Shown: in pieces, positions 1-27,280 of the stretch
Position numbering within the stretch: position 1 is the stretch's first letter
Layout: every line of letters begins with the position of its first letter
Assembly: GCA_965645245.1 (NCBI GenBank)
Contig: OZ287067.1
Span: forward strand, 3,286,001-3,350,000
Source of the DNA: Massalongia carnosa
Taxonomy: Eukaryota
DNA: 64,000 bases
Direction of reading: 5' to 3'
Position numbers and translations under genes: made by a program
The notes under the pieces: generated by a model
Databases searched by the model: none
What the model saw: only the letters and a program-made list of their open reading frames with translations
Told to the model about the DNA's origin: nothing

Positions 1-474
1 TTGTATATCCTTCTCTTGTGCAGCGGTGAATTGTATCATTGCTAATGGCTTAGTCTTGATCTTGTGTAGGTTATTCTTTTTCCACCATGTTCTGAACCAG
101 CGTAGAGTAGGTCCACTCGACTCAGGATTTTGCCCGCGTTTTAACCCGACAATTGCATTGAATACAACTCCGTGCGATGGTTGAATACCCTGTGCAAGTA
201 AGGATCGAATAAAGTGATGAATCGCTTTTACTTGATGCTCCTCAAGTATCTTGTTTTGTCCACCTCTTGCGCTTTTTGCACTGGAAGAAGATTTCTTGTT
301 AGAAGAAGATTTCATATCAGAAAAAGAAGATTTCTTATCAGTCGCAATAGAGCTGTACAACGTTGTAGGCCGAATTTTGAATATCTGAGCTGCGCATGCA
401 GTTCGTTCGTCAGGATTTTCCAACAAGAATGTTTTAGCATCACTAATACGTGTTTGTAAGGATACAGATTCCAT
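1..474 (-). mobile_element. N-terminal part of a pogo/Fot1-type (Tc1/mariner superfamily) transposase; continues beyond the left window edge
   Basis: Open minus-strand frame from ATG at 474 to base 1 (absent from the ORF track): MESVSLQTRISDAKTFLLENPDERTACAAQIFKIRPTTLYSSI...RGGQNKILEEHQVKAIHHFIRSLLAQGIQPSHGVVFNAIVGLK...GPTLRWFRTWWKKNNLHKIKTKPL. This is the HTH + CENP-B-like HTH layout of Fot1/pogo transposases. No TIR identified. Confidence 0.75.
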
Positions 475-773
475 TGTAGATATAGAGAGTAATGGTTTAT
501 GATGTGATAATAATATAATAATGTGATATTATTAAATTCATACTCGTTGTGACATCAGCTACAGCCGACCCATGCGAGAAAAGCTATCAAAGTTTCAAAG
601 AAAACCCTCATCGAGGGGAAAAAACCTTCATCTGTATACCTACACGTGATCGCTCGACCTCACTTCGCGAATGCTACGTTTCGCCAGCGCCACGTCTACG
701 ACACACATGCGTATCAAGAGACTACCTTCTGCCTCTGTTATAACTAGAGTTTGTGACTATCACTACGCGACAG

Positions 774-1118
774 TCAGGGGGAGGAAGAAAGACACTCTAC
801 AGCTAGCGAAAACTGTGTCAGTAGATTAGTCCGCATAAGCCAGCGAGCGGAGGCTCGTAAGCCCTTTTCGGTGGTCAGAAGGCGGCGATAATCCGTCGTT
901 CCGGCGTCTCTGCACATGTTGCTTCGGCCGTTAACAAACCTGGGGCAGCTGAGTAGCACATGCTTGAGCGTCTGGCGTGCCCATCCACAGCTACACGCCG
1001 GCGAAGCGAACGTGGGAACTCGACGAGAGAAGAGATAATCCGCCAAGCCAATACGCTCAGTACGCATTTGAATGATGAGGCTGCTTTCGGATTTGCTGAA
1101 GTTCTTATGTAATCCCAG
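774..1118 (-). mobile_element. 5'-truncated non-LTR retrotransposon (Tad1-like LINE) ORF2 C-terminal remnant
   Basis: LGLHKNFSKSESSLIIQMRTERIGLADYLF...ACSCGWARQTLKHVLLSCP...LLTTEKGLRASARWL carries the CCHC zinc knuckle and C-terminal motifs of fungal LINE ORF2. No RT domain recognisable upstream. Confidence 0.8.
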
Positions 1119-1940
1119 CTAAGAATGATAAAATAGAGTTGACATCTCTCTCCTTCGTGAAGTCTCTATCCCAGTTTTCGTTCATCTCACTGGTGCGTTT
1201 TACGGCCCAAGATTATTGATGAATTCTACGATTGGGGTGAACGACGTCCCTTTCGCCCAGGTCAAACCCAGTTTACTCCTTAAGCATATATCAAGGGCGA
1301 GGCTAGCCGTAGCCCATGCGCCGGCGAACCGACGGGGTCTCGTTACGAGCGAGATAGACATTCCCTGCTCTATATACACCGACATGCGCATACTGTCCTC
1401 TCGGGCTATGCAGACGGTCTCCGTACGGTGGCCGCCATTGCATACCACGCCTCACGGGTTTTTTACGCCCACTTCGCGTTATTCATAAAGGTCTCCCGTT
1501 TATGAACCGACCATGTCTCGCAGGGATTTCGACCACTATGCTCCTGACCAGGCAGTATAGTATCGATTTTCCGTCCCTACTAACCAAAACGAGTCGAGGA
1601 CAACTCGGAGGGGTGCTCGTTTCAAATTCGTCTATTAGCTCAGGGCCTAGACTGTTATCAATTAACGGGTTCCTCGTATATTGCCCTCTTCTTGTCCCAA
1701 GGGTGTCCTATTTGATGACTAGGTTGCCTCCACCATCCCCGGTACGACTCCGGTTCGGGCCGTGTTGCTCACGGTAGCCATCAATCGGATGGTTTTCATA
1801 ACCCAAATCCCTTGTATCGTGTAGGGTGTGACCCTACACTATGTGTCTATATGTTTTATTTCTTTCAGCCGGAGGGCTCCGTGTTGTAGACGAAGGAGAC
1901 CCGTGTGACAGACATAGCTGACCCGTGTCGTACGTCTTTA

Positions 1941-1985
1941 GCTCTCAGCCGATGACTGCATGAAAGGACTTGAACCTTTAAGAGT
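1941..1985. ncRNA. Copy 1 of candidate structured RNA motif (three-way junction)
   Basis: gctct-CAG-ccgatga-CTG-catg-aaagg-acttgaa-ccttt-a-agagt. Confidence 0.45.
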
Positions 1986-2135
1986 ATGACTGAACGTTGT
2001 TAACGAGGTCTATGAAAATCTTATTAACGAGGTCTTCGAGAACAATATTAACGAAGTTCCGCTGAACTCTTTTCATTCGTTTTGTGATCCATCGAGGTCT
2101 ACCCGTGTCAAATCCACACCATGCCCGTGTCAAAA

Positions 2136-2191
2136 TGCATCATTTTCAGCTGATGACTGCTAGAAAGGACTTGAACCTCTAAAAATATGTA
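2136..2191. ncRNA. Copy 2 of candidate structured RNA motif
   Basis: tgcat-c-atttt-CAG-ctgatga-CTG-ctag-aaagg-acttgaa-cctct-a-aaaat-atgta. Confidence 0.45.
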
Positions 2192-2265
2192 CGCCGATAT
2201 TAACGGGGTGCAGATCTGTCTTAACGAGCCCCCGCAGAACCCCCTTCACAGGGACGTGTTATTGA

Positions 2266-2567
2266 TTTGTGATTGTGTTTTTTGTGACTGTGTGTTTTGT
2301 GACTGTGTGTTTTGTGACTGTGTGTTTTGTGACTGTGTGTTTTGTGACTGTGTGTTTTGTGACTGTGTGTTTTGTGACTGTGTGTTTTGTGACTGTGTGT
2401 TTTGTGACTGTGTGTTTTGTGACTGTGTGTTTTGTGACTGTGTGTTTTGTGACTGTGTGTTTTGTGACTGTGTGTTTTTTGACTGTGTGTTTGTGACTGT
2501 ATGTTTGTGACTGTGTGCTTTGTACAACGTGTGATTGATGACTATGTGTTTTGTGACTCTGTGTTTT
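2266..2567. repeat. 15-bp minisatellite (GTGACTGTGTGTTTT)n
   Basis: About 13 perfect units (2284-2478) plus degenerate units on both sides. Explains the CDCVF/NTQSQ/VTVCF repeat ORFs. Confidence 0.97.
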
Positions 2568-2668
2568 CCTCGATTTTATTTAACAGGCCGGGCCTATTAA
2601 ATGGGATATTGTTATTCTGCTCCGAGATGGAGTTTTCTTGAGGTGACAGCATTCGCCCCGGTGCCTTT

Positions 2669-2735
2669 ACGCGTTCTGTTGATCCCAGCTGATGACTGCA
2701 TGGGGAGACTTGAACTCTCAGGAGCTAGAACGCGT
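2669..2735. ncRNA. Copy 3 of candidate structured RNA motif
   Basis: acgcgttct-gttga-tcc-CAG-ctgatga-CTG-catg-gggag-acttgaa-ctctc-a-gga-gct-agaacgcgt (9-bp perfect basal stem). Confidence 0.45.
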
Positions 2736-2785
2736 GTCGATTGTGCCCGGGTGGGGGATGATGCGGCTCCTTTGGTCCACATCTT

Positions 2786-2828
2786 CTTCCAGCTGATGAC
2801 TGCATGAAGGGACTTGAACCCTTAGAAG
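2786..2828. ncRNA. Copy 4 of candidate structured RNA motif
   Basis: cttc-CAG-ctgatga-CTG-catg-aaggg-acttgaa-ccctt-a-gaag; further pairing gtcc(2775)/ggac(2842). Confidence 0.45.
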
Positions 2829-3004
2829 CATGGTGCAGGGACGCGCGCATTCTACCCCCCGGCGGTTGGCCTTCGTATCCTCTTCCGTACGTACGTCTGT
2901 GACGCGTGTGAACGCGTTAAATTAGCATTGTTTTGATGCGAAAAGATAGGAGCAAATCTATGTTTGTCGGTCGCTCCACGGTGAGGCCTTTGGCGTCTCC
3001 GTGG

Positions 3005-3265
3005 TGAGGACCGATGGTGTAGAAGGAGGACCGATGGTGTAGAAGGAGGAGGACCGATGGTGTAGAAGGAGGAGGACCGATGGTGTAGAAGGAGGAGGAC
3101 CGATGGTGTAGAAGGAGGAGGACCGATGGTGTAGAAGGAGGAGGACCGATGGTGTAGAAGGAGGAGGACCGATGGTGTAGAAGGAGGAGGACCGATGGTG
3201 TAGAAGGAGGAGGACCGATGGTGTAGAAGGAGGAGGACCGATGGTGTAGAAGGAGGAGGACCGAT
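3005..3265. repeat. 23-bp minisatellite (GACCGATGGTGTAGAAGGAGGAG)n
   Basis: One 20-bp unit at 3009, ten perfect 23-bp units 3029-3258, partial unit to 3265. Confidence 0.97.
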
Positions 3266-4614
3266 ATATAATAATGTGATAGTAAATGTGATAGTAAATG
3301 TGATGGTGGAAGCTTGACTAGAAGCGAATGCTTCTTGGAGGGAGAGGATTAAGCGAGCGACTAGCCGACGATTATTATATTCCGCTTTTCAATAGTAAGA
3401 TATACGGAGTACACAGTAAGCTTTTGAGCCTCGTTAGAACTTCCGCCTGTAGCGTTATTGGATAGTTGAGGTATTGCCCTTGAAGTCAAGATATAAATTC
3501 AGCTAATAAAATTCTACTTCTTATCTTTACCCCTTTTAAAAATTCACTATCATTCACAAGCCTTTCTCATCTGACAATCTCTCTTTTATATATACATTTT
3601 TGCCCCAATTGAGTGCAGCAACTAGATTTGTTGCCGCAAGTTTAGGGGGTATCAAATGAACCTGTGGAAATTTGAGCGCTTCAAAGGCCATCTATCGGAT
3701 CTAACAAATAGATACTCGAAGAGAAAAGATAAAGTCAGGTTAGAAATTGAGTTCGGAGCGTATAGATGCTGGATGTTTCAAGATTATGTCCTCGAGGCAC
3801 GATACGTGACATTCTAGAAGCCACCAAGTCCATTGATTTCTTATATAATGAGTTTAGAAATCCGGCCTTGCAGGGCTCTTCAGTTTTTCTCTTGCATGTA
3901 CTGAGAGCCCTGCTCTAAAAAAGGGTTCGTATGTTTATTGATTCATTACGGGGAGGGTTGGAATGTGTTCACCTTGAAGCGCTGGACTTTGATTGGATGT
4001 ATTTTTCAATACAGGTACCTTTTAACCACCGCATTGATGGGAAATATAAAAATCAAGTAATCACGAAGAAAAAGGAGTATACACGAAAAAAGGAGTTGTC
4101 AAGACTAACACTTATGGGGGTGATTGAAAGATAGAAAGAGCCAACCAGGTTTAAGAAAAGAAATTATGTGGTTTCTGAAATACAACTTTAAAAGAATGCA
4201 GGAACTAGAATAACCATGATTTTCTTAAAAAAAAAAACCACAACCTCGATCAATCCCCCCTATATTCATTTAGATTATGCATGCCCCTTTTTAGAGATTT
4301 TTCTAACTCAGAACTTTTGTTTACTAGTTCTTCATCGATCTTTCCTACGACGAGTATTTGCGTTGTCGATTTCCCGCCTTGGACCGGGTCTTCAGGCTGG
4401 AATTTTCATGCCGCCATTGCTTCGGAGACGCGGCTATCCATTACGGGACCGATAAGAAAGGGAGGGTTTCCTTTAGGTTCGATGTTGTAAATTTGGCCAT
4501 CCGAATTCACAACACAATTGGTTGATTCGTTTTCATCATCTTCTCTACCCTCATCCTAGCATTTGCCTCTGTCGTCGTCTACATCTCTATGTCTGTGCTC
4601 CGATCCTCCTCCCC

Positions 4615-6577
4615 CTACTCAGCTTCATGCACATCGCCAAGTTCAAATGGATCCCCGTTCTCATTCACGTCTTTGTCCTCAAAAGCATCCGTATCCACAT
4701 CCTCAGTCCCAGTTTCGCCGCCTTCCTCATCCACTCCCCTTGCCCTCTTTTTCCCTGTAGGGTGGCTTCCCATGGTTTTTTCATCTAATTCCGACTTCCT
4801 CGACGCCGCTCGAACATAAGTAGCTAGCCTTATCTCGTTTGTACTTGCATTCCCTTTATCAAAATAAGTAAGGTGACGCGTAGTGTCATTAACGTTTTCG
4901 GGGAACTTTTTTACGACACGCATGTACTCTGTGTCATTAGGAGGGACCCCAGCTAAGAGGGAGGCGATTTTCGCCTTCATGATAATTTTGGCTTTCGACC
5001 AGGTGCCATTCAAGTACCAGCCATCGCCAAAAATCTGATGACGGAGTGAGTATTGCTCTGTAGTTCAAGTATAGCCAGAAAAGAGCTTACGTGGCATTCT
5101 TTACGAAGGTTAGTGGTTGAGAGAATGGATACCAATAAGGGGTCTGTAATGTCGCAAACCTGCCATACTTTACCATCAACTACGACGCTTTTTCCATCAA
5201 ACATATGATTCTCTTTTGGCGGATTCTTGGTGGAGCTAGGGGGATCACTCAACGCTCTATGCTCTTTCTGTTGTAGCCGTCCTAGGTCGACCATGAACAT
5301 CATAGTTTGATAAATCCGATAGCTCGGATCTTTTCGTGGATCAACGCCAAACTTTACCAAAGCATCTCGCCACGGCCCGGATGCCCACAGATAACCCACA
5401 TACTGGTAAATATATTTTGCGGCATTATTGCCTACAATCTTCCGGTCAGCTTCTGAGAGGTGACTGCGGATCGCCCGTCTGGTCCAGATTGGTCGTGCTT
5501 CGAGCAGAATCCTTGCGCTCTGGATAAGTCGTTGCATGGCCGGTTCAAGGGACGTGATAGGGGGTAAATCTTGCGCCGGACCACTGGGAACTTCGAGCAC
5601 GTCATAAGCAACGGCCTGGTTCTGCGCTGGTGGAGCTATTTGAAAGTTTTTTATGGTGATGTTGCCGTGGCTATCCAACGTTTGCTTTGCGGCAGGGTTT
5701 TGCAAATATCTTAGGGTTTGCGTCAATGATAATAAGATAAGCAAGCAAGGTATACTCACTGATAATTGAACGGGACAGTAATATGGCTCCACCGCGGAGG
5801 TGGGATAAGGTCAGCCTTTATCCGAGGTCCCTTACTCATATCCAACTTAAAGCTCTTCATCTTTTCATCTTCAAAGGGTAAGCGAATGAAGGAGGTCCTT
5901 AGAAGAGTATTTTACATTGGAAAGGCAAGATAGTCTCTCTCATCTTTGTCATAAACGGGCTGTTCGCAGTTGAGTATACAAAATCAGGCATGCCTACATC
6001 GTCAGCAATTGATTCCAGGAGTTAATCTAGATGAGATTGTATACTTCGAAAGCGGTGTGTCTGATAAATGGAGCCAATAGCGTGGATTTCGTAGTTTTTC
6101 ACGTTATCACGCAGCGAGCGAAGCATGTAGCGTGTATCCTTAGAGATTGGCACCGCAGATTGAGGCTCAATACTTGGAGCGAGGCCACCCATGTCTTTAC
6201 CTTGCTCATGATAGGGGCCAGATGATCCTCTGCGACGTTTTAAGCCAGTCCTCTTGGGAACTGTAATCTTAAGAACAACGTCATTTGTGATGACATTTTT
6301 TGATGTTACTGGTTTACACATAGGATCATGGGGCCATAGGTATAAGTTTGTGGATGCGCCTTGATTGTCATCCTCCACTAACTAAATCATTGTCATTATG
6401 ATGTTTCTTAAGTTCAACAAAGGTACACACAGATTTTAATTTAGGAAACCCTCCTAGCATATTGACTGCCTTGTCGACATTCTGAATGATGAATGGATGC
6501 TCAATACTAACAAGGACAGTCCTAGGGAGGTCGTACCATGGGGCATATTGGGAAGCCTCCCTCTCGTTAGCTTTCAT
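4615..6577 (-). CDS. tfc1: RNA polymerase III transcription factor TFIIIC subunit tau95 (Tfc1/Sfc1), multi-exon
   Basis: Exons encode SIEHPFIIQNVDKAVNMLGG, LYLWPHDPMCKP, LKITVPKRTG, IGSIYQTHRFR, LEARPIWTRRA, GPWRDALVKFGVDPRKDPSYRIYQT, DGKVWQVCDITDPL, NGTWSK and an acidic C-terminus. Exon joins read by eye. Confidence 0.9.
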
Positions 6578-12719: not shown

Positions 12720-15510
12720 GGGTCGGGATACGGGCACACCCTATTAGCTACCTTAACACCCTACTTTGCTACCTTCACACCCTACTTGGATAAATTCACA
12801 CCCCCGAAAAAGTAACCGCAAAAGGAAAAGTTTCCGCCCCCCTTTCCCGAGTAGGGTAAGCGGTGCGAAATTCTGTCGCCTGAGATGGGGAAGGAAGAAA
12901 TTCCATGTTTTCGAACCTCAGGAATCGGAGTCGATTGGCACCATGTTGGCCATTCGCACCTTGATTTCAAGCTACTAAACTTAAAGCAGACTAGCTACCT
13001 CATTTCCTGCCTGATCTATCGCTGCTTCATTCAACCCTCATTTTTGCCGTCTCCATCTCTGACATCTCCCTCACCTCCCTGATTCTCTCGCGCATTCCGA
13101 GCACTTCTTCGAATCCCTCGCGCACCTCGAGTCTCCTGCGCATCCTGCGTCCCCCGCGTCCCCCCGCGTCCCCCGCGTCCCCCGCGCATCTCCACCACCT
13201 CGATCAGCTCGATCAGCTCGAGCTCTTCTGCCTCGCGCCCTTGTCGGGGCTGGATCCGCCCGACGAATGACCCGTTCCACATCCGCTGACACCTCTTCAT
13301 CTTCTGCCGTCTCCATAATAACTCGCTCGAATTGAGAAGGTTGTCGACCCGTAGAGGCATTGAAAGCTTGAGTTCTTCTGTTTTCCGCTCCCGAAGGTCG
13401 TCCACGAGGTCGAATAATGTCTGGTTCTTCCACTATCAGCAGATTGAAATCATTGGCGGGAGCGTTTCTTTCAAATCTCCAATGTGGATGAACGTCTTCC
13501 AGCAATAAACTTCCTTCGCCATACAATCTTTCCTGAATTCTATGACTGCAAGGCAGTCCGGTGCTGGTTGTAAAAGAATTCGTACATGCTGGCAGAGCCG
13601 TCGGTCTCCCGGTCAGTAAATCGTACTGAGAATTAATTCTTCTGATTGCCTTAGTACTGATGAATGGAGATATTTGCTGAAAAATTGATTTCCGAAGATC
13701 TAGCGGATGTCGCGTTTTGTCCTCATTCAATTTGATCCAATAGTTATGATACTCGTTCAGCAATAAAAGACTGATTCCGTCCACCACCGTTTTCAGATCT
13801 CCGGTCGACGTTCCTAATTGACGTTTGATCACTGCATGCCCTCCCTCACCTCGAGAAGTAGTGGTGGTGTCAAAATGCAGTACTCGATTGGTAAAGCATC
13901 TTACGAAATGCTGAACATGAGTAATGTAGGTGGTAGCCAGATATTCCACTACCTCATACTCCTTGTATTTGATCGAAAACTGACCCCAGAGCTCCCATAG
14001 TATGACTCCCGATGAGGCGTAAGTTATCGCTTTCCATTCCGCAAAGAAGGTGTCCCATTCTTCCTTGCTGAATTGTCTTTTGCAATTGGCGACGACATTC
14101 TTATTGATATGCCAAATGCAAAGCAGATGATTGATACGAGGAAATTGCGCACGAAGAGCAAGCATCAGACTTCTTTCCATGTCGGTGACAATGACGGTCG
14201 GATCTGGAAGCTCCATTTGCAAATATAGAGCTTTGACTTGCCTCAAAACCCAGGTGTAGTCAAATTTTGTCTCACTGGCCATGAAGCAAAAAGCCACATA
14301 GAAATTGCTATGCAATGCGGTTTGACCGCTGATGATCAGAAGAGGCATTTTGTAGCGATTGGTTTTATAAGTGCAATCCATGATCAGAACCTCATAGTTG
14401 GACTTTAAAAAAGTTCGGGAACTTCCTTTTACAAAGAATAAATGAGTTATCTGATTGCGATCCTCCTCATTCTTTTGCATTTGATACAACCAATCGTCGC
14501 TCTGATCAAGCTCTCGAATCAATGCCTGTATGGGAGTCAACGGTCCCAAAGCCTCGCGACGAAGTTGAGCCTTGAGATTGTAGATGTCTCGAGGTTTGAT
14601 CATGGGATTGACGACTCGAGGATTGGCCGGATCGTCCCAATTGATTCCGGTGGTAAGATCAGGTATGCGCAGACTCGAAATCACTTTCGATGGAGCAGTC
14701 TGAACAGTTAGCTGACGCGATATCTCATCTTTTACCTCGGCGGTGATAGCCATCTTTCGATGCACTGGATGAGCCCCTGCCAAACTCGAGGCATGATTAT
14801 GTTCCGATTTGACCACTTCCAAAAACCAGATATCAGACTCTTTTTCCCGAATCGCAATCATTTAAAAGGGACAAGCAATGGCTCTGCTGGCAGTATGACG
14901 ACGACTTTGTCCGCGAGGTTCTCTCACTCTGCCTCCTCGATCGCAAATCAACCAAGCTTTGCGCGTATTTCCATCCTTATTCTTCTTCGTACGAGCGAGA
15001 ACAATTGCATAACCGCGCGGGCCAGCATGCTCATTGACTCGTTGAATCAAGTCTTCCAAAGACTCAAAGGATTGTCCTTCTTCCGGAGCAGCAAGAGGTG
15101 CTGAAGCTGACGAAGGGGGAGAAGCTGGCGGAGGGGGAGAAGCTGGCGGAGGGGGAGAAGCTGGCGGAGGGAAGGCAGATGCGACTCTTTCGAGGATGAT
15201 GAGATTGGGAGCGGAAGAATTGGATTCGGTATCAAAACCATTGAACGTGTCATCGGAAGATGACATTCTGCAGGAGTAAGAAGAAGGTTGCGGCGAAATT
15301 CCAAGATGCGACGAAATTTTGCGAAAGATGCAGCGAAATTTCAGGTGCGGCAAAATTTCGCGCCGCTTACCCTAATTGGGAAAGGGAAGGGGGCGGAAAC
15401 TTTCCCTTTTGCGGTTACTTTTTCGGGGGTGTGAATGTATCCAAGTAGGGTGTGAAGGTAGCAAAGTAGGGTGTTAAGGTAGCTAATAGGGTGTGCCCGT
15501 ATCCGCACCC
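12720..15510 (-). mobile_element. Mutator-like (MULE) DNA transposon, full length, ~150-bp TIRs
   Basis: TIR gggtcgggatacgggcacaccctattagctaccttaacaccc... (from 12720) is mirrored at ...gggtgttaaggtagctaatagggtgtgcccgtatccgcaccc (to 15510). Flanked by direct repeat tttaaaaa (12712-12719, 15511-15518). Confidence 0.95.
13071..15266 (-). pseudogene. MULE transposase (FAR1/WRKY-like zinc DNA-binding domain, MULE DDE domain, SWIM finger) interrupted by one in-frame TAA
   Basis: ORFs 14862-15353 and 13071-14861 are one frame split by TAA at 14862-14864 (WLICDRGG...IACPF*MIAIRE...SEHNH). Motifs LIMDCTYKTNRYKMPL, VTDMERSL, LCIWHINKN, TTSRGEGGHAVIK, CTNSFTTSTGLPCSH. Confidence 0.9.
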
Positions 15511-25275: not shown

Positions 25276-26960
25276 GTCTTTGGATTACGAAAAGAGTTTA
25301 GCGAGTTGAAGAATATACAGAACAATGGGGCAACGTGCATATAAGAGCTTTCGCAAGGACTGGGACATATGCTAAAGGTCCCGTCATGGGCGAGATTACA
25401 CCCGTGTTCACGAAAGCCACGACGGGAAATATCGCTCTATATCTACTAAGTTACGGAATAATATGTTCTGCATTCCCGCATTCTTGCGACATGAGACAAT
25501 TCAAGCTCGGAGTTGTTATGATGATAGATATCTTGAAGAGCCTCCTTTTAAGCCATCAGACTTGCCACTAAATTCCGAAAGATAATAAAGCATTACATGA
25601 AAACTATTAAATGGATGAGTACAACTACTTGGTCTCGAGCGCGATGTAGATAGGGTGTATATTGATTTTTCTCTGAGGAGGACAAAAAAGTCCAGGCTTT
25701 TGAAGTCAAATATTACAGCCCTCGAGCCTGGATGAATATTGGAACGGGCCACACGGGATCGTTCTCAACGCCGGCATTGGTCTAGCGAGATGGATGATCA
25801 GCTACGCATCCTAAACCCTTGTTGATGAGAAACTACGAAGAATATCAGGGAGAAAGCGAGAAATCAGCTATTAAATATTGGATTGATGCTAATACTAACA
25901 GCAGTTAGCGATGTAACGAGGAGCCTGGAAAAGTATATATACCTGTATCGTTATTCTTTTCTTTGGCTTCTGCTCGAAAATTTCAGTGATTCGCCTTTTC
26001 AACAAGGTAAAAGAATCTATATCTTTCGCTAACAAAGCCGGGCTAAGAAAGTATTGTCTACACCTAATCTAATCATCTCCTGCGTCCGCTTCCGAAGGCT
26101 CTTTTATCCCGGGAAAGGCTGACCACAACGATATTACATCCTATGGATATCGACTAGACGCACCGACGAATGGACGGCGGCTGATATCTCCTGTTTCAAA
26201 CTCTGGCAGAAAAGCTCCGGATTACTCTTATGAGAAGTAAACCGTAAGTGGAGAATAAAATGTTGATGTTACGCTAAACATTAGCCTAACGGACAAGTGT
26301 CAGGCAGTTGGTGACTGCTTGGCTAGAATGGGCCTAGGATAGTTTAGCCGATGTGGGTGCTCAAAAGCACCCACGATAGAACTAATCAAAACTATTCCTT
26401 CTAAATATTCGTACATGCACTATAGTCATCAACAATTCACTTCAACATAAAAGGGTCACAGTCAGGACCGCAGCTTCGCCCTCGGCACAGATTACATTGC
26501 GGGGGAAAGGAAGAAATCAACATGCAAATGGCTGGCTGCTTTAAGTAGCTTTGTGTTTTACTACATTTGCTGGAAGCGACTACTCTTGTTGCATGATGCC
26601 CATTTTTTTTTGGCCGAGGAAGGAAGATCGCCGTTTAGAGTTTTATATGGGGGAAGAGGCATCGCGGCGCTGTTGTACTTGAGTATCCCTTAATGGAGCG
26701 CTGTTTGAGAACCAGATGGTAAAGTGAGCGGTAAAAGAATACGAAAGGCGTATTCTTGGAAGTAATTTCTGTGTGCAGGGAACCTGTATGGGGATCAATG
26801 ACTACCTATTCCCACCTTAACTCTCCTTTCTTTCCCATCTTCTCTCACTCCTACTCCACCTATTTTATGCACACCTACATTCTATGTATAAGTGTATACT
26901 CGTCACAAACTGACATGCCCCTTCTCTTAGAAGAAGAGCAAAAAGTTTAAAAAGGAAAAT

Positions 26961-27078
26961 CATACAACAATCGGAATTCGCTGGTGGTCACCCACCCAAC
27001 TACTAATCGATCGATCTGAAGCTTATTTGAGGCAGAGCGGACGGGATACCAAGTTCTCCTCAGTCTGTGGTCGTATGT
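26961..27078 (-). rRNA. 5S rRNA gene (copy A)
   Basis: ACATACGACCACAGACTGAGGAGAACTTGGTATCCCGTCCGCTCTGCC...TTAGTAGTTGGGTGGGTGACCACCAGCGAATTCCGATTGTTGTATG followed by a T-rich terminator. Confidence 0.93.
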
Positions 27079-27159
27079 GAAAGAAATGGCGACAACTACA
27101 ATAAATAAAGAGCCAAACTGTTCACCCTTAAGATGAAAGAATAAAAAGAAAGAAGAAAA

Positions 27160-27280
27160 ACATACAACAACCGGGATTCGCTGATGGTCACCCACCCAAC
27201 TACTAATCGATCGATCTGAAGCTTATCAAGATGGCAGAGCGGACGGGATACCGAGTTCTCCTCAGTCTATGGTCGTATGT
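27160..27280 (-). rRNA. 5S rRNA gene (copy B)
   Basis: ACATACGACCATAGACTGAGGAGAACTCGGTATCCCGTCCGCTCTGCC...TTAGTAGTTGGGTGGGTGACCATCAGCGAATCCCGGTTGTTGTATGT followed by a T-run. Confidence 0.95.

Follow-up and report, generated by a model that had tools for sequence, protein, structure and literature searches.

The composite insertion and its four units

The DNA analyzed here is a stretch of 64,000 nucleotides of Massalongia carnosa (contig OZ287067.1, positions 3,286,001 to 3,350,000 of the forward strand), referred to as the window. Between positions 529 and 3265 it contains a composite of two parts, both read on the minus strand: a non-coding sequence of about 2.1 kb (3265 to 1119), referred to as the leader, and the 5′-truncated end of a long interspersed nuclear element (LINE). 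The leader carries four copies of a three-way-junction motif, referred to as units, which had been noticed in an earlier reading of the window (the original prediction) as a candidate structured RNA. The identification of these units as parts of the retroelement leader of a leader-LINE chimera is considered highly probable.

The borders of the composite are marked by the exact 16-mer ATATAATAATGTGATA, which occurs in the window only at 513-528 and 3266-3281 (0.01 occurrences expected). Since this duplication is found at both ends, 529-3265 (2,737 bp) represents one insertion. The target-site duplications were checked for the window copy. The suggestion of the original prediction that the motif is carried by a repeat was borne out, as the units are located in a composite non-LTR (long terminal repeat) retroelement with 16-bp target-site duplications. 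Its description of the copies as dispersed had to be given up: they are no stand-alone element but a repeated module inside a leader of about 2.1 kb that was inserted in one piece. The window was also compared with the contigs of four sequencing runs (X2, X5, X6 and X7), among which no contig bridging the empty site 528/3266 was reported. The following features were assigned, where P1 to P3 denote the helices of a unit, ORF an open reading frame, UTR an untranslated region, R1 the covariance model described below and TRF the tool Tandem Repeats Finder:

513..528, target-site duplication, left copy, ATATAATAATGTGATA (exact 16-mer)
529..776, minus strand, LINE 3′-UTR, between the ORF2 stop and the left duplication
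777..1118, minus strand, 5′-truncated LINE ORF2, final 114 residues (corresponding to 1013-1118 in the 1126-aa relative P0004)
1119..1300, minus strand, leader 3′-terminal region, ending with ...UCUUAGC at 1119, with covarying helices (loci alignments, contigs, RNAalifold)
1355..1590, minus strand, conserved leader block A (blastn, 66-77% identity, colinear in many loci)
1696..1835, minus strand, conserved leader block B (blastn, 71-79% identity, colinear)
1924..2002, minus strand, three-way-junction unit 1 (copy 1 of the original prediction; P3 loop variant UCAUCGG; R1 64.2 bits, E 3.6e-17)
2125..2202, minus strand, three-way-junction unit 2 (copy 2; R1 67.3 bits, E 3.9e-18)
2266..2567, 15-bp minisatellite of about 20 copies between units 2 and 3 (TRF)
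2664..2742, minus strand, three-way-junction unit 3 (copy 3; long outer helix; R1 59.4 bits, E 1.2e-15)
2768..2847, minus strand, three-way-junction unit 4 (copy 4; R1 61.4 bits, E 2.6e-16)
2850..3005, minus strand, leader 5′ region with CCUCACC-containing inverted repeats (conserved in loci L058 and L013 by blastn, in L063 by eye)
3006..3265, minus strand, 11 tandem copies of a 23-bp repeat that form the outermost 5′ part of the element (TRF)
3266..3281, target-site duplication, right copy, ATATAATAATGTGATA (exact 16-mer)

In the sense direction, the 23-mer repeats (3265-3006) come first and are followed by the 5′ region. Next are units 4 and 3, which the 15-mer minisatellite separates from units 2 and 1; block B then precedes block A, and the structured 3′ region and the LINE form the end of the element. 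Without the two minisatellites, the leader has a length of about 1.6 kb. The ORF2 tail is 99% identical to P0001 (523 aa, RVT_1) and 58% identical to P0004 (1126 aa, Exo_endo_phos_2 and RVT_1). The LINE identity was obtained by protein search; a Pfam search on the short ORFs across 1-2821 gave no match. Contigs of X5 and X6 span 577-1118 in one piece.

The length of the minisatellite at 2266-2567 varies among leader copies, with contigs of X5, X6 and X7 skipping 180-269 bp, and one 15-bp insertion was found within it at 2503. At the 5′ end, another genomic leader copy (X7 contig) departs from the window sequence at 3018, where it has about half a repeat. The 11 tandem copies of the first 23 nt of the element itself suggest stuttering of the reverse transcriptase or repeated 5′-end jumps.

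For the recovery of the motif copies, the loop pattern GATGACTGCNNGNNNNNACTTGAA was used. It matched four times in the window, with starts at 1951, 2152, 2691 and 2795, all on the plus strand, and never in 100 dinucleotide shuffles of the window. These are the copies listed in the original prediction at 1941, 2136, 2669 and 2786. Their layout on the plus strand, P1 - CAG[CYGATGA]CTG - CNNG - 5-bp stem[ACTTGAA] - A - P1′, was confirmed by direct reading (copy 1 has CCGATGA), as were the stem sequences given for the four copies and the outer helix acgcgttct/agaacgcgt of copy 3. Over the window, model R1 matched the four known copies only. Pairwise identity among them is 27-47% in the variable columns (59-60), whereas the CAG/CTG hairpin and the T-loop, which occupy 20 columns, are 95-100% identical. 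The compensating changes reported earlier were present in the inner and outer stems; the CAG/CTG stem, which is constant across the window copies, therefore receives no covariation support from the window.

Pairing, strand and distribution of the units

Scanning of metagenome contigs with GATGACTGCNNGNNNNNACTTGAA resulted in 113 matching stretches, of which about 40 have the full motif with pairing stems. A regular expression with no pairing requirement yielded 45 distinct 79-nt copies, the four of the window included. A covariance model (R1) was built on 36 of these 45 copies and gave 92 matches (67 distinct rows) with scores ranging between 35.9 and 89 bits from 38 sources, compared to a top score of 24.9 bits for 100 control loci that contain the loop pattern only. 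In prokaryote genomes, GATGACTGCNNGNNNNNACTTGAA was matched 49 times, never with the stems, where about 70 matches are expected by chance (own calculation: 2 x 596e9 / 4^17). All 49 are part of the 100-locus control set, none exceeding 24.9 bits. Positional orthology of units across genomes is not claimed, the best identity in the variable columns being just 0.45-0.61.

Covariation was analyzed on both strands. For the plus-strand alignment of the 45 sequences the covariation score was 0.394 compared to 0.234 in shuffles, with none of 500 shuffles equal and a maximum of 0.176 for slid partners. In the minus (sense) strand alignment (A3, 36 sequences) the score was 0.496 compared to 0.277 in shuffles (reached by none of 500), slid partners gave 0.280 or less, and 81.9% of the cells were paired compared to 70.2% in shuffles. 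The 5-bp hairpin P2 is paired in 96.7% of the cells and shows two-sided changes in four of its five pairs. In P1, the four junction-proximal pairs switch between U-A and C-G types (e.g., UA in 23 and CG in 11 sequences). The same three-way junction was predicted by RNAalifold with no guidance. The statement of the original prediction that pairing is kept while the sequence diverges, and that the structure is thus under selection, holds in this larger alignment. Loop-loop or loop-flank pseudoknots were searched by eye, and no obvious complement was found.

The strand was derived from the wobble pairs. In P1 and P2 of 56 distinct variants, 46 G.U pairs were counted on the minus strand compared to 14 on the plus strand, besides 428 Watson-Crick pairs and 16 other mismatches; four rows outside the parsing expression were left out of this count. 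For the 34 stem combinations of the first set, the numbers were 33 (minus) and 7 (plus). Since strand-symmetric mutation would yield equal wobble counts, the minus strand is indicated as the selected RNA (or single strand). The G-U count of the original prediction, which favored the plus strand, was thus reversed in the larger sample. Covarying RNA motifs in repeat-rich intergenic DNA can belong to the antisense strand of a retroelement, which calls for caution in annotation.

Read on the minus strand, the unit has the order P1 - U (56 of 56 variants) - 5-bp P2 with the loop UUCAAGU - CNNG - CAG UCAUCAG CUG (P3) - P1′, where UCAUCAG is the plus-strand CUGAUGA. The loop UUCAAGU was found in 51 and the consensus of the P3 loop in 36 of the 56 distinct variants. 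The closing pair of P2 is G-C in 35 of 36 sequences. The T-loop consensus is UUCRANY in a 7-nt loop that is closed by G-C on a 5-bp stem, and the P2 hairpin agrees with it in each of these points. The earlier assignment of this hairpin to the tRNA T-arm type is consistent with its sequence.

No Rfam family was detected in the window at 1700-3000 (E ≤ 10). At 500-3400 nothing relevant was found, the two matches to SpR10 (E 0.012) and a viral pseudoknot (E 7.4) being at chance level, and six related loci gave no match at E ≤ 1. The original prediction had named missing covariation and a strong match to Rfam or to a tRNA-derived short interspersed nuclear element (SINE) as outcomes that would speak against it; both were looked at and neither occurred. 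For the latter, a B-box-like sequence is present, no A-box was recognized by eye, the leader is about 2.1 kb long and the sense strand contains T5 runs. Structured modules that covary this strongly are rare outside known families, and the one described here has no Rfam match.

Further candidate identities were rejected. Telomerase RNA is a long conserved RNA with a three-way junction, but no AACCCTAA template is present in 1-3500. An intron or introner, considered for the plus-strand UACUAAC at about 1575, was discarded in view of the LINE-sense orientation and the target-site duplications. For a C/D box small nucleolar RNA (UGAUGA), no D box was seen by eye beside P1′. A hammerhead in the leader 3′ region (CUGAAGAG and GAAAC, by eye) does not have the helix II/GAAA arrangement.

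Leader-LINE chimeras in other loci and known systems

Using blastn with window positions 1-6000 against the metagenome loci, the units were found to be always accompanied by 1355-1590, 1696-1835 and 1119-1300 in the same order, and the leader blocks are colinear in about 40 loci. In 18 loci the order was 5′ region, two to four units, block B, no or one unit, block A and 3′ region. The number of units per leader ranges between 2 and 5. At least 18 metagenome assemblies include contigs with such leaders. In L003, L036, L042, L062, L064, L090, L091 and L108 a unit is contained in 183-bp near-identical tandem repeats (up to three in a row), which belong to one lineage and point to a recent tandem amplification of the unit inside the leader.

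Wherever the loci can be aligned, the leader has its 3′ end at one and the same nucleotide (...CCTTGGC; ...TCTTAGC at position 1119 of the window). Homology among 8 and among 16 aligned loci breaks off exactly after ...TTGGC/TTAGC. Contigs of X2, X6 and X7 match the leader from 1118 on and have three different sequences before that point, and LINE contigs of X5 and X6 continue through 1118 into intact ORF2 sequence. In the leader 3′ region, compensatory changes were identified in 12 of 24 RNAalifold pairs. Since this region also has compensatory pairs, the whole leader looks like a multi-domain structured RNA, as judged from its sequence. One 6-bp stem of this region (1119-1286 minus, equivalent in 10 loci) is changed from GUAAGG/CCUUAC to AUAGAG/CUCUAU in the window.

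Of the 14 loci with at least 300 nt beyond the leader, 11 have LINE ORF2 there (tblastn), with side and orientation being the same throughout. The ORF2 match starts at residue 1 in L013 (after 346 nt), 312 in L028, 485 in L037, 691 in L066, 723 in L026, 837 in L003, 963 in L064, 1003 in L062, 1013 in the window, 1014 in L001 and at a further point in L042, so that 11 different start points were found among 11 loci. In a twelfth locus (L036, 1-620 minus) the sequence fused to the leader encodes a CCHC zinc knuckle, CFNCHGYGHFAREC, which by eye is LINE ORF1-like. The LINE partner would therefore have two ORFs, with junctions falling in ORF1 too.

Two similarities were noted in the LINE 3′-UTRs. 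The sense strand at 549-562, about 25 nt from the LINE 3′ end, reads GUAGCUGAUGUCAC, a near-complement of the P3 hairpin GUCAUCAGCU with 8 contiguous pairs (rough chance about 0.02 over the whole UTR). A complement of this type was not seen in the partial 3′-UTRs of L001 and L062, which may stop before the 3′ end of the element. These two 3′-UTRs (L001 at about 2960-2985, L062 at about 3160-3185) contain UUUUUAUCCCUUAGCUGGG, which resembles the leader end and junction of the window (UUUUAUCAUUCUUAGC|UGGG). This resemblance may be a coincidence or may reflect mimicry of a LINE 3′-UTR element by the end of the leader.

The arrangement found here, with a constant leader 3′ end, variable LINE truncation in the same orientation and 16-bp duplications, is that of MINE in Magnaporthe. 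MINE consists of the full-length 1.1-kb non-coding WEIRD RNA fused to the MGL LINE cut at 28 different sites, is flanked by 10-20-bp direct repeats and was attributed to template switching by the LINE reverse transcriptase; no solo WEIRD copy was found, no similar sequence was reported from other genomes and no function was known (PMC2104539, Gogvadze et al., 2007). Both composites have a full-length non-coding 5′ module with a constant end that is joined to variably truncated LINE copies, both are flanked as a whole by direct repeats (16 bp here), and both are multi-copy with no solo 5′ module seen. The leader is longer than WEIRD (about 2.1 kb compared to 1.1 kb) and originates from other fungi (a run labelled lichen metagenome and many metagenome assemblies). 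The GCC|A/T motif of the MGL switch sites is absent at the window junction (GAGAC|TGGG). For WEIRD, no internal RNA structure is known to have been described. In the literature searched, no description of the present motif or of MINE-like elements outside Magnaporthe was found. The data provide a first view of how the 5′ partner is organized internally in leader-LINE chimeras, which, as far as the literature searched shows, had been described for Magnaporthe only.

The unit shares the 5-bp stem, the 7-nt loop UUCAAGU and the closing G-C pair with the tRNA T-arm, and its T-loop fits GUUCNANNC, the recognition motif of Pus4/TruB-type enzymes. Unlike a tRNA, it has no D or anticodon arms, and its partner hairpin has 3 bp and no anticodon-like features. 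The T-hairpin follows the 5′ strand of the outer helix, mirroring the tRNA topology. The original prediction had already noted a lack of fit to a tRNA, in agreement with ARAGORN, which detected no tRNA gene in the window; only the T-arm-like hairpin is present.

Other non-LTR elements also have structured or repeated modules in their non-coding 5′ portion, namely hepatitis delta virus (HDV)-like ribozymes at LINE 5′ ends (R2, RTE, L1Tc) and the tandem promoter monomers of the mouse L1 5′-UTR. In contrast to the former, which form a nested double pseudoknot, the units are plain three-way junctions with no HDV-like fold, are internal, occur in several copies and do not form a processed 5′ end. 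In contrast to the latter, they conserve base pairing and not sequence alone. In mammals, U6 small nuclear RNA (snRNA)-L1 chimeric retrocopies combine a full-length non-LINE RNA with a 5′-truncated LINE by template switch. This joining is similar to the one described here, whereas the 5′ partner here is a long RNA known from chimeras only and not an snRNA with its own genes.

Possible role of the units, alternative explanations and surroundings

It is probable that the four copies are repeated structured RNA modules on the minus strand in the leader of the leader-LINE composite. The composite would be inserted as a whole by target-primed reverse transcription of the LINE type. During synthesis, the LINE reverse transcriptase would leave the LINE RNA early and continue on the leader RNA, starting from the 3′ end of the latter, in line with the proposal for MINE/WEIRD of Magnaporthe. 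A leader RNA with a defined 3′ end would serve as acceptor, and the resulting chimera would gain a transcribed head together with a LINE tail. The constancy of the loops points to contacts that depend on sequence, and the T-loop to an imitation of the tRNA elbow, a feature that many proteins and RNAs recognize. Within the leader RNA, the units might thus serve as 'elbow' mimics for protein binding or RNA docking, not as catalysts, and keep the leader RNA stable, nuclear or near the LINE ribonucleoprotein (RNP). This functional part, i.e., chimera formation onto the leader RNA and the units as recognition or architectural modules, is put forward as a tentative possibility.

Several observations weigh against this interpretation. 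The stem P3 (CAG/CUG) is almost constant, with one GAG/CTC and one TAG/CTA as sole variants, and contributes near-zero covariation. Single-sequence folding energies of the window copies did not differ from those of shuffles (z between -1.70 and +1.15), so that thermodynamics alone gives no support. The metagenome retrieval pattern fixed both loops, which makes loop invariance partly a matter of construction, and only the copies added by R1 test it (T-loop in 51 and P3 loop in 36 of 56). Many copies share kinship, so that the counts do not equal independent events. In three of the 14 loci (L009, L017, L036) no clear LINE ORF2 was found beyond the leader; L017 gave a weak LINE match only (E 0.027) and L009 none. 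The likeness to MINE is one of architecture. Transcription of the leader and its minus strand is predicted from sequence features, and the binding, architectural or tRNA-elbow-mimic role of the units is a putative one.

A further-reaching version, in which the leader is a distinct ascomycete-wide selfish RNA partnered with LINEs, with a promoter, a defined 3′ end and T-loop junctions as elbow mimics that recruit a factor or RNP, is speculative and rather doubtful. If true, each 5′-truncated dead LINE copy would be re-armed with a transcribed head, and the leader would gain a mobile LINE tail. The elbow mimics would attract either a host factor that binds T-loops or the RNP of the LINE, and thereby bring the leader RNA to where reverse transcription takes place. 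The WEIRD RNA of the rice blast fungus would be accounted for as well. With the leaders described here, which have a conserved domain order, the nature of WEIRD becomes a testable question of RNA structure, template switching and tRNA mimicry in retrotransposition.

The leader could instead be a cellular housekeeping non-coding RNA that was captured by the LINE reverse transcriptase, comparable to U6-L1, the module having a host function and the copies in retroelements being by-products. A housekeeping RNA was proposed for WEIRD by the authors of the MINE study (PMC2104539). It would fit a leader that is always of full length, has a fixed 3′ end and is structured throughout, and also the two loci with no clear LINE beyond it (L017, L009). 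This origin appears unlikely, however, as no solo gene was seen, the ORF2 of a LINE follows in 11 of 14 loci and the ORF1-like zinc knuckle in the twelfth, and related genomes contain several copies of the leader that are joined to different partners. For Magnaporthe, no solo WEIRD copy was reported either (PMC2104539). Two to five units and expanding minisatellites would also be unusual for such an RNA.

Another explanation regards the conserved parts as double-stranded DNA, where GGTTCAAGTCC would be a TFIIIC B-box derived from a tRNA gene and serving as promoter, boundary or targeting element, CAGCTG/TGACTG would be transcription-factor sites of an internal promoter and the pairing would be a relic. 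The consensus of the B-box is GGTTCRANNCC, to which the minus-strand T-loop and its closing pairs fit; the units are repeated like the mouse L1 promoter monomers, and a retroelement leader must hold an internal promoter. The compensatory changes in four of five P2 pairs and in P1 and the 46:14 excess of G.U on one strand are left unexplained by this. In many copies the second stem pair is changed from G-C to A-U (AGTTCAAGTCT), which weakens the B-box and keeps the pairing. In addition, ARAGORN reported no tRNA gene, no A-box was seen by eye, and T-runs within the units (T5 in unit 2) would stop RNA polymerase III. A function as DNA only is therefore quite improbable, although DNA and RNA functions could coexist, as in tRNA genes.

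The original prediction had suggested that the motif may be a new self-cleaving or processing RNA. Such an RNA could resemble a hammerhead if read from the plus strand, or it could represent a new class, on whichever strand. The plus strand indeed has CUGAUGA and GAA as well as a three-way junction, and the units occur as tandem copies in a retroelement, an arrangement that hammerheads show in Penelope-like elements and retrozymes. HDV-like ribozymes are known from the 5′ ends of LINEs, and the fixed 3′ end of the leader needs some maker. The geometry of a hammerhead is absent on either strand: the core bases are in hairpin loops and not at the junction, with CYGAUGA in the loop of a 3-bp hairpin and GAA in that of the covarying 5-bp hairpin, with no helix II between them and no GAAA. 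The lack of fit to a canonical hammerhead had been recognized before. The strand bias points to the other strand, and no ribozyme family of Rfam was found at 500-3400 of the window (E ≤ 10) or in the six related loci (E ≤ 1). The inserted copy retains all four units and 420 nt 5′ of them, so that the units of the retrotransposed template must have been left uncut, an argument against efficient self-cleavage. With a distance of 800-1700 nt to the 3′ end of the leader, the units leave that end unexplained. Self-cleavage is thus regarded as very unlikely.

Finally, the structure might form in the single-stranded first-strand complementary DNA (cDNA; plus-strand DNA) at integration, e.g., for priming of second-strand synthesis. 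The 5′ end of the leader is copied last, its complement being the 3′ end of the first-strand cDNA, and the stems can pair on both strands. The wobble ratio of 46:14 in favor of the RNA-sense strand is opposite to the prediction for plus-strand DNA, and the units are located in the interior, at a distance of 150-1300 nt from the 5′ terminus of the element. A fold of the cDNA is considered extremely unlikely, and the units are interpreted here as minus-strand RNA modules of the leader.

Outside the insertion, proteins encoded in the window include SF3a60, TFIIIC tau95, a DEAD-box helicase, a DNA ligase and a MULE (Mutator-like element) transposase, which mark it as eukaryotic. One run containing the stretch carries the label lichen metagenome, so that an ascomycete fungus is the probable source. 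The following features were recorded:

1-528, minus strand, 176-codon ORF with no Pfam match; the composite is inserted just upstream
5010-5792, minus strand, ORF with TFIIIC tau95 HTH (helix-turn-helix) domain, 2 kb from the B-box-like motifs
13071-14861, minus strand, MULE transposase ORF of 596 aa, intact-looking
26959-27078, minus strand, 5S rRNA gene (Rfam, 63.4 bits)
27159-27280, minus strand, 5S rRNA gene (Rfam, 69.2 bits)

No link between the tau95 ORF and the units was found; because the units are part of an insertion flanked by target-site duplications, their closeness to this ORF looks coincidental. The N-terminus of the ORF at 1-528 recalls pogo/Fot1-type transposases by eye, and the locus around 1-528 and 3282-3400 may be a nest of mobile elements. 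The two 5S rRNA genes are spaced 200 bp apart.

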